Positions 51,198-63,309 of a stretch of DNA of 63,329 nucleotides are shown here, piece by piece; positions within the stretch are counted from its first letter, which is position 1, and each line of letters begins with the position of its first letter. The DNA lies in NCBI GenBank assembly GCA_944388735.1, contig CALXJX010000005.1:1-63329 (forward strand), written 5' to 3'. Both the position numbers and the translations under genes were made by a program. This stretch comes from an uncultured Clostridia bacterium (lineage in GTDB: Bacteria; Bacillota; Clostridia; TANB77; CAG-508). The notes under the pieces were generated by a model. The model did no database searches and was not told the DNA's origin. It saw nothing but the letters and a program-made list of their open reading frames with translations.

Positions 51198-52880
51198 CTA
51201 ATGGTTCACTTTAAATGAATTCTTAAATGTTATAGAATCTCTTGAAACTTTATACATACTGTATCTTTCTCTTGCAAGTGTTGTATAATACACATTTGCT
51301 AAAGTTGCATTTCCTGTATTTTGTACATATTGAGATATACTTTTTGCATCTCCAATATTATTTATGCTTCCTTGTCCTACAATACAGTTATAACAAGCTA
51401 GATAATTCTTTGGATAATAATACCTTATACTTCCATTTGCATCATTATAATTTCCTATATCTGTATCTATTATTTGTTTTCTTTCTAAGTCTATATTTAA
51501 CACTCCGCCTATAATGTTACTTCCGTCAGCTACTAAGTTTGTATCTGTTATTCTATGATAATAGTTATCATTTGTTACTATATATATTGATTCTTCTGTT
51601 ACTACCTCTTCATTTTTATTATTGTTTACAACAGAATATCCATTATATACTTTTCCTCCTATATTTAGTCCTTGTAAAAAGCTTATCATAGAAATGTTAC
51701 TTAATAATGAATCCCATTCTTCTTCTTTTAATCTTGGCATCTGGAAGTTAGTCATTATTCCAGTAGAATAGTTGTTATAGTTTGCTATTGCTATGGATAA
51801 ATTTCTTTCTATTACATATCTTATTACTGCTAATCTATGTTGATTGAAGTTAGAATTGCTATCTTCTATTGATCTTCCAGTTGTGTTGTAATCAAATATT
51901 TTTTCTTCTCCAGTAAAACTATATACTATATTACCATTGTCATCTTCTATGTTTCTAGAATCGCCTGGTATTACTGCATCATTTGGAGTTAAGTCGTTTA
52001 GTCCATTTCCTATTATAAAATCTCTTAGTTCTACTGCTTCTTCATATAATCTATATGCACTATTATCTGTTGTTAAATTTCCCATTGAGTCTTGCTTTAA
52101 CTTAGTTCCATTAAACAATGAAAACCAACTGCCATCTATGTCTTGATAATATTTTACTCCATTTATTTTTATATATTTATATATTGCATTTCCTACTCTT
52201 TCTTGTTGTAATGGTTCGTTTTCACTTATTGTTTGTCCCCTATATGTAATGCTTGTAATATTTCCACTTGCATCTTTTGTTGCTGTTAAGTTATCTAAAA
52301 CATATCCTTCTTTGTTTACAGCGTTTCCATTTACTGTTCCTTGTATTGTTACATAATTATCTAAAGAATATGTTATAACAACATCAATTGCTGCGGTTGT
52401 ATATCTACAACTATAATATATATATGGTTTTAGTCCTGTTACTCTTATTCCGTCTGAATATTTTATATCTGTATCTGTTCCAGGAGTTATTTGACTTGAT
52501 GTTTCTTCATCCAATGTATTTGTATATGGTGAGTATATATAAAATCCGTCATACATTGTATATACCAATGCTGGAACATAGTCTTTTAATACGTCTTTAT
52601 TATATCCAGCCATATTAAAGTTTGTTGCTATTAAATTGAAAAATGTGTTTACAGATGCTTCAATATCTCGCAATTTTGAGTCAGCATAATTTGATGAACT
52701 ACTATTTACTGTATTTAATTGAAATGCTTTTATCGCATCATAAGTTGCATCATCTAGTTTTGAATCATAAGATATTTGTAGTCTTAAAGTTTGCATTTGT
52801 CCTTGGATGTATTCTGAAACTATGATGGATATTGGCAGTATTATTATAATAAATATTACGGCTAAACTTTGAATTTTCAT
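51198..52880 (-). CDS. Large N-terminally anchored protein of the filament-like operon (unknown family)
   Basis: 560 aa. MKIQSLAVIFIIIILPISIIVSEYIQ anchor followed by a large Asn/Tyr/Thr-rich extracytoplasmic region. Last gene of the operon. Confidence 0.4.
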   Translation of the reverse strand: MKIQSLAVIFIIIILPISIIVSEYIQGQMQTLRLQISYDSKLDDATYDAIKAFQLNTVNSSSSNYADSKLRDIEASVNTFFNLIATNFNMAGYNKDVLKDYVPALVYTMYDGFYIYSPYTNTLDEETSSQITPGTDTDIKYSDGIRVTGLKPYIYYSCRYTTAAIDVVITYSLDNYVTIQGTVNGNAVNKEGYVLDNLTATKDASGNITSITYRGQTISENEPLQQERVGNAIYKYIKINGVKYYQDIDGSWFSLFNGTKLKQDSMGNLTTDNSAYRLYEEAVELRDFIIGNGLNDLTPNDAVIPGDSRNIEDDNGNIVYSFTGEEKIFDYNTTGRSIEDSNSNFNQHRLAVIRYVIERNLSIAIANYNNYSTGIMTNFQMPRLKEEEWDSLLSNISMISFLQGLNIGGKVYNGYSVVNNNKNEEVVTEESIYIVTNDNYYHRITDTNLVADGSNIIGGVLNIDLERKQIIDTDIGNYNDANGSIRYYYPKNYLACYNCIVGQGSINNIGDAKSISQYVQNTGNATLANVYYTTLARERYSMYKVSRDSITFKNSFKVNH

Positions 52881-52964
52881 TATTTTCTTTCCTTTGCATT
52901 TGTATAATATTTTAATAGCCTGTAATTTTCATTACAAGCTATATCAATTGCTATTATTAAATGA

Positions 52965-53483
52965 TTATGACGCTCCGTTTGTTGTTACCATTTTTGAGTC
53001 TACTGCTATATATGATGAATTATCGCTTGCTCCTAGAAAAACATCATGTAATATATCTGCTAAGCTCTTACTTTCTTTTTCTATTCCAGCTGTAACGATG
53101 TCTCCTTCTTTTAATGTTATTTTTCCATTTTTATCTAGTTGCTCTAAAAATTGAGACTCATATATTGCAACATAAGTATTTTCACCTATCTTTGTACTTT
53201 GCACTTGGCTTGTCTTTTTTCCTGGATTTTCATCTAAAAATTGTATTTCTACTGCAATATCGTAAGCATTTCCTGTTGCTGATATTTTTTCTACTAATTT
53301 TGAATAATCATCTTGTGTTATTTCCCCTTTTGTACTTACAGTCGTCACAAAATCTGATAGGGCTGTTTCTAATGTCAGTTGAACTACATCGTCTGTTCTG
53401 TCTGCCATTGACATAAATGGAACAACTATCATTAATACTACTGCTACTCCGATTGCTATTACAATCATTAATGTATCTTCCAT
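52965..53483 (-). CDS. Small N-terminally anchored protein (minor-pilin/TadE-like candidate)
   Basis: 172 aa. MEDTLMIVIAIGVAVVLMIVVPF hydrophobic N-terminus. Confidence 0.35.
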   Translation of the reverse strand: MEDTLMIVIAIGVAVVLMIVVPFMSMADRTDDVVQLTLETALSDFVTTVSTKGEITQDDYSKLVEKISATGNAYDIAVEIQFLDENPGKKTSQVQSTKIGENTYVAIYESQFLEQLDKNGKITLKEGDIVTAGIEKESKSLADILHDVFLGASDNSSYIAVDSKMVTTNGAS

Positions 53484-53509
53484 AATAACCCTCCTTAATA
53501 CTTTATTTT

Positions 53510-61499: not shown

Positions 61500-61500
61500 T

Positions 61501-62199
61501 TTATACTCCTCTTTCTATTGTTTTTATAGTTCTTCTTATGTTTGATTCACTCATATCTTTTAAAATTTCTTGAGTAACGAATACCAAACCGTCTTTGTAT
61601 TGTGCACTTAATTTTTTGAATTTTATTTTAGCTACTCTTTGATTTTCAGCAAGAACCAATCTATCCCCATTTTCAATAGGAAAATATATTCTATATTCAT
61701 TCCAAACCACTTTATACTCAAGAGAAAGATAATTTAAGTAGTCGTCTTCTTCTTTAAGCATTTCTTTGGAAAATAAAATTTTAGTCAAATTAATTGGTTG
61801 TTTTAATCCGCTTAATATCTCTAGTCCTTTTTTCAAAGAATACAAATCAAAAGATGTAACAAAAAAGTTTTTGTCTGCTTCTAGTAAATTAAATTCTTCT
61901 ATTCGTTCTTGTGTGTCAGTATCTATTAACATAATATCGTAAGGCATATCTTCATCATTTGTAATTCCTAAATATTGCTTTATTTCTTCTATATTTTTAA
62001 ATCCTACTGCTATATCTATTTCTTCGTACTCTGTTATGTATGTAACTGTAGGATTTATAACAGGTACAACATATTTAGCCTTTTGATTGATTGTTGAATC
62101 TATTACAATAACTCTATTTTTTAGCACAGTTAAAATTTTTGCAATATTTATAATCATATCAGTTTTATCAAACGCCCCTATAAATCCCACTTTTTTCAT
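61501..62199 (-). CDS. ParA/MinD-fold-like protein with degenerate P-loop
   Basis: 232 aa. KVGFIGAFDKTDMIINIAKIL..VIVIDST has the fold pattern, but the GKT is lost. Confidence 0.3.
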   Translation of the reverse strand: MKKVGFIGAFDKTDMIINIAKILTVLKNRVIVIDSTINQKAKYVVPVINPTVTYITEYEEIDIAVGFKNIEEIKQYLGITNDEDMPYDIMLIDTDTQERIEEFNLLEADKNFFVTSFDLYSLKKGLEILSGLKQPINLTKILFSKEMLKEEDDYLNYLSLEYKVVWNEYRIYFPIENGDRLVLAENQRVAKIKFKKLSAQYKDGLVFVTQEILKDMSESNIRRTIKTIERGV

Positions 62200-62217
62200 G
62201 CTCTTACTTTCCTTTCA

Positions 62218-63309
62218 TTAGTTAGTTGTTCCATATAAAGAATCTAAATATTCTTTTCTAGTTGTTTTTGAATTTGTTATACTTTCTTGCATATTTGTTC
62301 TTAAGTTTTCATCTGCATTTTCTGAACTATTAATTTGTGTATTAATATAATTATTTCTTATATCAGAACTATTAATTTGGTTGTATCTATTTCTTAAGTC
62401 TGTCATTGCTTTTTCAACAATATTAGGATTTCTTGATATTAATGCTGCTGTTTCTGCTGTTACTACATAAGTAGGTGTTGCTGCTTGTTGCATTCCTGCT
62501 TCTGCATATTTTGTAACATATAATTTTGCTCCTTGTACTCTATATGCATCTACTATTGCACTACTCAAGCTTAAAATTTCATCTTCCCTTAAATCCACTT
62601 TTATTGTATCTTCTGAATCAACTCCATCTATTTGTGGAATTTCTACTTCTTTTTTAGATACTACGATAAAATCTTGTCCTGATGGCATCATCAATCTAAA
62701 ATCCACATAATCTCCTGTCGTTAAATCCATTGGTAATACAAACACATTATATTCTTGTGTCCTTAAATCATCTGTTATTGTTGTATCACTTTTTGTAATT
62801 AAATCTGTTGTAATAACTGTATTTTTCTTCATAGATACTTTTGCTACTAGTGGTACTTCATTTAATTCAACATATTCTTTATTATTGTTTCTTTCGATAT
62901 AATAGTTTGCTGTTTCTTCTTCTTGTTTTAACTCGTACTCTCTATTATCTTTATTTAAATATAATGTAGCAACATTATTTTGATATTTTGTTATTACACT
63001 ATTTCCTTCTTTGTCTTCTAAAGAGTAATTAATGATTATATCTAAATTGCTCGTTGCATTGCTAGGTACTAAATTTCTATTTACTGTTAAAGTTTTATAC
63101 ATATCATTAGTTATTACTTGACCTGAACTAACATCTTGACTTAACACATATACTTGCACACTTGCTGCTCTTTCTTCTTGTTCTTTTTTAGAATAATTCA
63201 TTATTTGCATAACTAAAAAGCCTATCACTACTGCTGCTATTAGGAGCATTACTAACATTCCTAATAAAAATGAATTTCTTGCTTTTCTTTGCATTGGATT
63301 TGTTGCCAT
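62218..63309 (-). CDS. CpaB/RcpC-like pilus assembly protein (TM anchor plus SAF-like domain)
   Basis: 363 aa. N-terminal TM helix, then VQVYVLSQDVSSGQVITNDMY (SAF-domain-like). First visible gene of the operon; upstream sequence lies outside the window. Confidence 0.5.
   Translation of the reverse strand: MATNPMQRKARNSFLLGMLVMLLIAAVVIGFLVMQIMNYSKKEQEERAASVQVYVLSQDVSSGQVITNDMYKTLTVNRNLVPSNATSNLDIIINYSLEDKEGNSVITKYQNNVATLYLNKDNREYELKQEEETANYYIERNNNKEYVELNEVPLVAKVSMKKNTVITTDLITKSDTTITDDLRTQEYNVFVLPMDLTTGDYVDFRLMMPSGQDFIVVSKKEVEIPQIDGVDSEDTIKVDLREDEILSLSSAIVDAYRVQGAKLYVTKYAEAGMQQAATPTYVVTAETAALISRNPNIVEKAMTDLRNRYNQINSSDIRNNYINTQINSSENADENLRTNMQESITNSKTTRKEYLDSLYGTTN

Follow-up and report, generated by a model that had tools for sequence, protein, structure and literature searches.

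What machine is encoded by the run of twelve open reading frames (ORFs) at positions 51198-63309 of contig CALXJX010000005.1, and does it build a pilus? The contig (63,329 nt, referred to as the window) belongs to an uncultured Clostridia bacterium of the TANB77 lineage and has a G+C content of 25-30%. An earlier reading made without database searches (the sequence-only reading) had taken the locus for an uncharacterised system of Tad-like design. The second half of that description was largely sustained and the first was overturned: the locus is the orthologue, in another species, of a cluster published in 2024 as a Tad-like pilus cluster (PMC11680825), so it has been known since then with the same interpretation and is not new. 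From our analysis, the operon probably encodes a very divergent machine of the Tad (type IVc) branch, fitted to a single-membrane envelope and displaying a fibre, whose role would likely be adhesion to, or interaction with, the gut surface. The Tad-like assignment is carried by the matches of the ATPase, the SAF/CpaB protein and the ParA-like proteins; a pilin fold of the subunits and a kinship of the platform protein with known platforms were not demonstrated.

Kim et al. (2024; Nat Commun 15:10726) described a 12-gene 'pilus gene cluster' of the uncultured gut order TANB77, where 122 of 129 species conserve it. Their cluster (genes 927-938 of HRGM_Genome_2725) encodes proteins of 358, 231, 280, 640, 693, 165, 170, 143, 146, 237, 178 and 621 aa. 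By AlphaFold2 modelling and Foldseek comparison these authors assigned CpaB, TadZ, CpaE, TadA/CpaF and a protein with a TadC-like first half and a TadB-like second half. Six small proteins showed no homology, the orthologue of our g08 was listed as a signal-peptide protein, and the N-terminal quarter of protein 938 was TadE/PilV-like by structure. Recombinant 'pilin 938' activated dendritic cells via TLR4 and improved the anti-PD-1 response in mice. Apart from the ATPase, the proteins were presented as nearly exclusive to TANB77 among gut genomes. The window carries another species' copy. The 12-gene order, the near-identical sizes of the machinery proteins, the pattern of transmembrane (TM) helices and signals, the proposed roles and the host group (uncultured low-GC gut Clostridia) are the same, while the lengths of the small proteins and the order of their sizes differ; the orthology is judged from gene order, protein sizes and membrane topology. 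The words 'peptidase', 'sporulation' and 'spore' do not occur in the published text. The lack of a peptidase, the MENAxxAL N-termini, the spoIVB neighbourhood and the plasmid homologues, all described below, are not treated there.

The operon is real. It is not a chance run of ORFs, since all 12 genes (g01 to g12, Table 1) recur in the same order in most of 80 related loci. These species-level relatives were fetched via the ATPase gene g04, and all of them come from uncultured Clostridia of animal and human guts. The closest genomes are metagenome-assembled genomes of uncultured Clostridia, Clostridium sp. CAG:575 and Ca. Merdicola (GC about 27-28%). The NCBI taxonomy goes no further than 'Clostridia incertae sedis', and among the results it is the cluster itself that points to TANB77. 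Homologues of each of the 12 proteins were found in 70-80 of the 80 loci, and the dominant arrangement runs from g01 to g12 and on to spoIVB, which has the same orientation, and murC, which has the opposite one. Median identity among the relatives is 83% for the motor g04 and 74% for the platform g05, and it drops to 37-47% for the small proteins, which evolve fast and still keep almost invariant extreme N-termini. A slow motor and platform together with fast subunits of invariant N-terminus is a rate pattern typical of pilus loci.

The evidence for a Tad-type machine starts with the ATPase. g04 matched Pfam T2SSE with 28.4 bits (cut-off 24.9), and when the single sequence was searched against the PDB, CpaF was the only match at E<=0.01 (2e-10). 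The family profile matched CpaF at 3e-16 over 272 residues and VirB11 next at 8e-5, which upholds the earlier call of a CpaF/VirB11-type ATPase. Weaker profile matches were archaeal GspE (8e-4), FlaI (1.5e-3), DotB (0.01) and PilT/GspE/PilB (0.026-0.33). The best NCBIfam match, a weak one, was 'TadA family conjugal transfer-associated ATPase'. The Walker A motif GEQGSGKTT and the THHA His box are invariant in the family, and all catalytic boxes are kept. A conjugative type IV secretion system (T4SS), the competing system named in the sequence-only reading, left no marker in the operon: VirB4, type IV coupling protein and relaxase were all lacking among its proteins (Pfam for all twelve, NCBIfam for the first ten).

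The other machinery proteins point in the same direction. The SAF domain of g01 spans residues 52-100 and scored 23.3 bits in Pfam (cut-off 21). The TIGR03177 pilus_cpaB model matched residues 18-89 only (E 3.8e-7, the N-terminal third of the model, far below its cut-off), and with the TM helix and the SAF domain this agrees with a CpaB-like first protein. Two ParA/MinD-fold proteins, one of which has lost its P-loop, had also been predicted, and the searches agree with this by weak matches for g03 and weaker ones for g02. g03 hit Pfam CbiA at E 7.7e-5 (23.1 bits, just under the cut-off of 25.4), its family profile found the ParA-family ATPase 3ea0 (E 7e-4) and Get3 (E 1e-3) in the PDB, and in the family alignment G15 is invariant and T17 nearly so. 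g02 matched no Pfam or NCBIfam family; its family profile gave marginal MinD/Soj matches (E 0.02-0.08), and its N-terminal motif is conserved in the family alignment. The locus therefore shares with the Tad/Flp pili of Caulobacter (Cpa), Aggregatibacter (Tad) and Bifidobacterium breve (Tad) a CpaF/TadA ATPase, a CpaB-like TM and SAF protein and TadZ/CpaE-like ParA proteins, with the machinery genes first and several small anchored proteins after them. It has no secretin, as expected for a single-membrane cell.

g05, the platform candidate, would take the place of TadB and TadC as one fused 691-aa protein. Its polytopic nature, predicted before, stood up in the hydrophobicity scan (Table 1); no likeness to T2SSF, TadB or TadC was detected by Pfam, hhalign or Foldseek against the PDB. 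The AlphaFold2 (AF2) model, built on a 98-sequence alignment of diverse relatives, is all helical (mean predicted local distance difference test, pLDDT, 91.4; predicted template modelling score 0.84). It contains two similar modules at residues 122-292 and 504-690, each made of a long helix, four to five short helices and another long helix. As modelled, this two-module layout is compatible with two platform-type (T2SSF-like) domains. The family is large: 1172 cluster representatives reached E<=1e-3, and identity falls to 26% among the full-length relatives.

One N-terminal hydrophobic helix each was detected by the hydrophobicity scan in g01, g04 and g06-g12. The last seven are the proteins that the sequence-only reading had listed as anchored, four of them of MENA type, and scan and sequences agree with that list. 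The MENAxxAL start is present in g06, g07, g09 and g10. The N-terminal consensus is MENA[STA]KAL in g06, g07 and g09 (81 homologues for g06) and MENAx[DE]AL in g10, for which neither Pfam nor NCBIfam has a family. As the major, surface-exposed filament subunit, g09 is the strongest candidate: residues 1-27 hardly vary, the Ser/Thr-rich C-terminal half is hypervariable, the copy number varies from 0 to 3 among the relatives and the gene has the best conserved ribosome-binding site (Shine-Dalgarno sequence, AAGGAGGAA) of the operon. We infer this role from a pattern expected of such a subunit. In the AF2 model of g09 (pLDDT 85), helix 2-36 is followed by a low-confidence break at 36-38, helix 42-53 and a beta-alpha-beta-beta-beta segment, which may represent a pilin alpha1 helix that is kinked and packs against a sheet. 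g12 is the orthologue of the published 'pilin 938' and may be a tip or adhesin subunit; neither the single sequence nor its family matched anything in Pfam or the PDB, and the family showed no match to the Rhizobium TadE/TadG proteins.

Table 1. Genes and hairpins of the operon (positions in the window)
Feature	Length	Position	Strand	Character
g01, CpaB-like	363 aa	62218..63309	minus	TM helix 15-33, SAF domain, long variable C-terminal part
g02, small ParA/MinD-fold-like	232 aa	61501..62199	minus	degenerate P-loop GAxDKTD in place of GxxxxGK[ST]
g03, ParA/MinD-fold ATPase, TadZ/CpaE-like	286 aa	60639..61499	minus	Walker A with signature lysine (K..SGKT)
g04, CpaF/TadA-branch motor ATPase	656 aa	58650..60620	minus	TM anchor 2-20, family-specific N-domain of ~250 aa
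g05, polytopic all-helical platform candidate	691 aa	56559..58634	minus	at least 7 hydrophobic helices (hydrophobicity scan)
g06, MENA-type, minor-subunit candidate	234 aa	55782..56486	minus	one TM helix; no family found
g07, MENA-type, minor-subunit candidate	158 aa	55216..55692	minus	one TM helix, conserved N-terminus
g08, exported or anchored	144 aa	54684..55118	minus	consensus MKK and hydrophobic run, Sec-type signal/anchor
g09, MENA-type, major-subunit candidate	149 aa	54158..54607	minus	MENASKAL start
g10, MENA-type, anchored	207 aa	53510..54133	minus	D/E instead of K at position 6
g11, anchored	172 aa	52965..53483	minus	M[GSE]DTLI N-terminus, then conserved FPL....R.DD
g12, large anchored	560 aa	51198..52880	minus	conserved N-terminus MKIQxLAVIFIIIILP
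Hairpin between g11 and g12	12 bp	52915..52942	minus	fold z = -3.8
Intrinsic terminator closing the operon		51126..51159	minus	-19.3 kcal/mol, z = -7.5 vs shuffles, U7

The twelve genes are all co-directional and are separated, from g01 to g12, by gaps of 18, 1, 18, 15, 72, 89, 97, 76, 24, 26 and 84 nt; the gene coordinates given in the sequence-only reading proved exact, and its short gaps and terminal hairpin are real. The terminator has a 9-bp core stem at 51133-51159, 16 predicted pairs altogether, and the U-tract after it. The palindrome between g11 and g12 is kept in the consensus of 66 relatives and is followed by a weak U-tract; it is possibly an attenuator or processing site and might lower or time the expression of g12. 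The window edge lies 20 nt upstream of the g01 start codon, and a good ribosome-binding site is visible there. In the relative L003 the next gene upstream encodes a HAD phosphatase, followed by genes for a CarD-like regulator, dUTPase, SpoVS, a YmdB-like phosphoesterase and RNase Y. As these neighbors are unrelated, the operon is complete and no peptidase gene should lie just past the window edge; the TadV/PibD-like peptidase that had been thought worth seeking upstream of 63309 is not there in L003. Upstream of g01 the relatives conserve the sequence TTGATT-N17-TAAAAT (e.g., L010, about 7160-7326) in a region outside the window, preceded by two or three direct repeats AATATTACAAA with 11-nt spacing. 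By its sequence, this promoter looks like a sigma-A promoter under the control of an activator, e.g., a response regulator. Matches to internal promoters (100 found, 92 expected) are at chance level in AT-rich DNA and are not taken as evidence. A prophage or phage origin of the operon was also considered, and the PHROGs search gave nothing meaningful.

The family extends to plasmids. A tblastn search of PLSDB found ATPase homologues with 37-61% identity over about 88% of the length, including the N-domain, and platform homologues with 24-39% identity on 35 large plasmids of 61-543 kb; canonical CpaF genes in the same search showed 25-28% identity in the core only. The plasmid hosts are Paenibacillus, Thermobacillus, Cohnella, Lysinibacillus, Sporosarcina, Cytobacillus, Alkalihalophilus, Butyrivibrio and Clostridium, the last with C. 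argentinense, C. botulinum and C. beijerinckii; the plasmid of Paenibacillus polymyxa M1 is among the carriers. All 35 plasmids are typed non-mobilizable. Four loci were compared by phmmer: L081 (metagenomic), L082 (pTHECO01 of Thermobacillus composti), L083 (pBsph of Lysinibacillus sphaericus C3-41) and L084 (pRSJ17_1 of Clostridium argentinense). Homologues of g01, g04, g05 and g11 were found in all four, and those of g02, g03, g09 and g12 in two or three each (g12 in the plasmid modules at E 3e-23). The plasmid modules, annotated as hypothetical, keep the gene order and are headed by the g01 homologue ('SAF domain-containing protein'); they differ from the operon in lacking the MENA paralogues g06, g07 and g10, and g08. 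Directly downstream lie genes for an SLH or cell-wall-binding protein and a protein of ~1000-1200 aa (DUF5704 in pTHECO01 and pBsph). GGDEF and HD-domain genes follow the module in pTHECO01 and in the C. argentinense plasmid and hint at control of the plasmid modules by cyclic di-GMP (c-di-GMP). In pTHECO01 the module adjoins genes for a coupling protein and a relaxase-like protein as well as transfer genes of the Tcp/VirB4 type; with these beside it, the module itself is probably not the DNA channel. The distant locus L081 has a higher GC content and keeps the core genes. A 640-aa protein with a long acidic low-complexity tail takes the g03 position there (6131-8053), and a PhoH/PIN-type gene is inserted among its subunit genes. 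Our literature search found no publication describing the plasmid modules. The family is much wider than TANB77, and its occurrence on plasmids, as seen in these sequences, appears to be new here.

Several results weigh against a Tad-like pilus. A filament has never been observed in any organism. The Flp motif G↓xxxxEY (↓, cleavage position) with its hydrophobic run was absent from a six-frame scan of the whole window, and so was the type IV motif G↓FTLxE from all frames. No A24 prepilin peptidase (TadV/CpaA) is encoded in the operon or the window; the three plasmid modules examined likewise lack an A24-like peptidase, as do the 80 relatives in the stretch of about 10 kb to either side of the ATPase gene. 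Tad systems, to our knowledge, do not typically have a motor ATPase that is anchored in the membrane. The platform g05 belongs to no Pfam or NCBIfam family (no T2SSF match at E<=0.1), the best Foldseek match of its model in the PDB was an unrelated protein at E 0.07, hhalign detected no similarity to TadB and TadC of a Rhizobium plasmid, and its two halves compared with each other gave a probability of 14%, with no detectable sequence likeness. A profile of 25 g05 orthologues gave chance matches only against PDB sequences; we know of no full TadB/C structure in the PDB. For g09, the sequence profile found nothing in the PDB and the best Foldseek match had E 1.9, with no solved pilin. The pilin-like alpha1-beta fold, on which the sequence-only reading had staked its case, thus has a compatible topology in g09 and no match to a solved pilin; the fold was not established, nor was it contradicted. 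It had seen neither a prepilin of the Flp or type IV kind nor a prepilin peptidase, and these negatives hold for the whole window too. Compared with Tad/Flp pili, the locus differs in having no Flp motif, no TadE/TadF Pfam match and no TadV, in a fused platform without a detectable T2SSF signature and in an ATPase that has an additional N-domain as well as a TM anchor. The major-subunit candidate here is predicted to have a globular alpha/beta domain, whereas Flp consists of a short helical peptide.

The first residues of the subunits bear on how these would be processed. As a general rule, the pilin-like subunits begin at Met1 with a polar start of 7-9 residues and have no basic prepilin leader. 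The gaps are too short for a small gene to be hidden in the operon. A minimal class III signal is one possible reading of the start MENASKA↓L; K would then occupy -2 and A -1. The K at -2 is not conserved in g10 or in distant relatives, which speaks against such a signal, and the first eight residues are the most conserved part of the subunits, which is unusual for a discarded leader. By sequence, the subunits appear to be leaderless or to have a leader of only 7 residues, a point that is apparently new here. The Tad branch is thought to derive from archaeal Epd-like pili (Denise et al., 2019). Compared with those pili, MENASKA↓L could be a very short class III signal; the ATPase, however, matches archaeal GspE/FlaI at 8e-4 to 1.5e-3 as against 3e-16 for CpaF, and no PibD/EppA-type peptidase was found in the window or in the flanks of the relatives. 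In Bifidobacterium breve, tadV lies outside the tad locus; a locus lacking it is thus nothing unusual, and a distant peptidase gene is the simplest assumption. A bolder reading, which we hold to be rather unlikely, is that the locus and its plasmid relatives form an unclassified, Firmicutes-wide branch of type IV filaments with leaderless subunits, for whose assembly a CpaF-like motor tethered to the membrane and a fused platform would suffice and no peptidase would be needed. In that somewhat doubtful case the extreme N-terminus (MENAxxAL here; MSTNASKAL, MESPVVKAI and MDNVPSSAI elsewhere) would stay in the mature protein. The pilin-like starts on the plasmids are MSTNASKAL, MESPVVKAI and MDSPVVKKI, and those in L081 are MDNVPSSAI and MNEVPSSAI.

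A separate ORF of 170 aa at 17297-17809 (minus strand) has the N-terminus ...NEHA↓ITLIALVITIVIML and matches the prokaryotic N-methylation motif weakly and below threshold (E 0.007). It may encode a classical type IV (pseudo)pilin-like protein, and if so a prepilin peptidase would be needed somewhere in the genome.

For the Tad-like fibre the following mechanism can be proposed. A hexameric, membrane-anchored, CpaF-like ATPase (g04) would turn or push the fused two-module platform (g05), which would pull the N-terminally anchored subunits from the membrane and stack them through their hydrophobic first helix. The product would be a surface filament or a short pseudopilus in which g09 is the bulk subunit and g06, g07, g10 and g11 are initiating or tip subunits of low abundance, with g12 at the tip as an adhesin or host-interacting protein. 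A ring of g01 (TM and SAF) may guide the fibre through the wall, and the ParA-like pair g02/g03 (TadZ/CpaE-like) may position or activate the motor.

The motor, platform and anchored-subunit evidence speaks equally for a short Tad-derived pseudopilus, a piston as in type II secretion or Com that would export g12 and g08 through the wall or import DNA. The set of several different anchored subunits with one large one resembles pseudopilin sets, g08 has a Sec-type signal, and the large wall-bound proteins always found downstream of the plasmid modules are possible cargo. Pfam and NCBIfam scans showed no ComEA/ComEC-type DNA-uptake genes in the operon, however, and g09 diversifies like an exposed surface antigen, a behaviour that is easier to reconcile with a fibre on display than with a buried piston; we regard the piston as unlikely. 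The occurrence of the ATPase and platform in the same gene order on 35 large plasmids raises a further possibility, namely a mobile-element accessory: on large Firmicutes plasmids the module would have been a fibre for mating aggregation or attachment, which then became a fixed part of the TANB77 chromosome and may still serve cell-cell contact and gene transfer instead of host adhesion. The transfer genes beside the pTHECO01 module would agree with this, as would the weak conjugal-transfer TadA match of g04. Against it stand the chromosomal setting of the operon, which in about 80 species is constant, flanked by housekeeping genes and free of any neighbouring relaxase, coupling protein or VirB4, the complete-looking Gram-positive transfer system of pTHECO01 itself, which does not need the module as a DNA channel, and the non-mobilizable typing of every plasmid carrier. 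This origin seems to us quite improbable.

The neighborhood of spoIVB suggests still another role, a sporulation-linked envelope machine analogous to SpoIIIA-SpoIIQ and acting in spore formation. The adjacency noted in the sequence-only reading is real: in 66 of the 80 relatives spoIVB is the next gene downstream and has the same orientation, and SpoVS is encoded upstream in L003. The SpoIIIA system also consists of a secretion-type ATPase, a polytopic protein and several anchored proteins, and g07 gave a match to Pfam SpoIIIAH (E 0.019). That match is far below threshold (15 bits, cut-off 30.6) and is the sole one to the SpoIIIA channel, whose components SpoIIIAA-AH with their ring-building motifs are otherwise not seen in the operon. 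A strong terminator separates g12 from spoIVB, the promoter of the relatives is sigma-A-like and unlike a sporulation sigma promoter, and the plasmid modules are surrounded by genes for conjugation, replication and c-di-GMP, none for sporulation being present in the stretches examined; the link is therefore positional only. In the window, moreover, spoIVB is frameshifted while the operon is intact. It was concluded that a sporulation machine is very improbable, and the displayed Tad-like fibre is the reading we retain.

The spoIVB copy of the window (49694-50948, minus strand) is split over three reading frames by frameshifts near 50735 and near 49823, the latter severing the GMSGSP catalytic-serine segment. 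In the relatives spoIVB is intact (about 405 aa, 75% identity). The copy here is a pseudogene, or else the assembly is in error. At 9904-10650 (minus strand) the window encodes a SleB-type spore cortex hydrolase (Hydrolase_2 and peptidoglycan-binding domain), which indicates that the lineage carries germination genes although spoIVB is broken here. A sortase gene stands beside a gene for a 378-aa Listeria-Bacteroides-repeat protein at 3241-5223 (minus strand), a separate sortase-type route of surface display on the same contig.

The cluster marks the uncultured gut order TANB77, for which a link with better responses to immune-checkpoint therapy of cancer has been reported, and its last gene product reportedly acts on TLR4 (Kim et al., 2024). 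What remains of interest in this Tad-like machine is that it has no recognizable pilin, peptidase or T2SSF signature, and that the plasmid hosts, being cultivable, allow this to be tested. Homologues of the core genes are present in Paenibacillus polymyxa, Lysinibacillus sphaericus, Thermobacillus composti and Clostridium species, so that ordinary genetics and microscopy are feasible without culturing TANB77 itself. If the subunits are indeed unprocessed, this family would build a type IV-like filament without a prepilin peptidase, a component regarded as universal in the superfamily.

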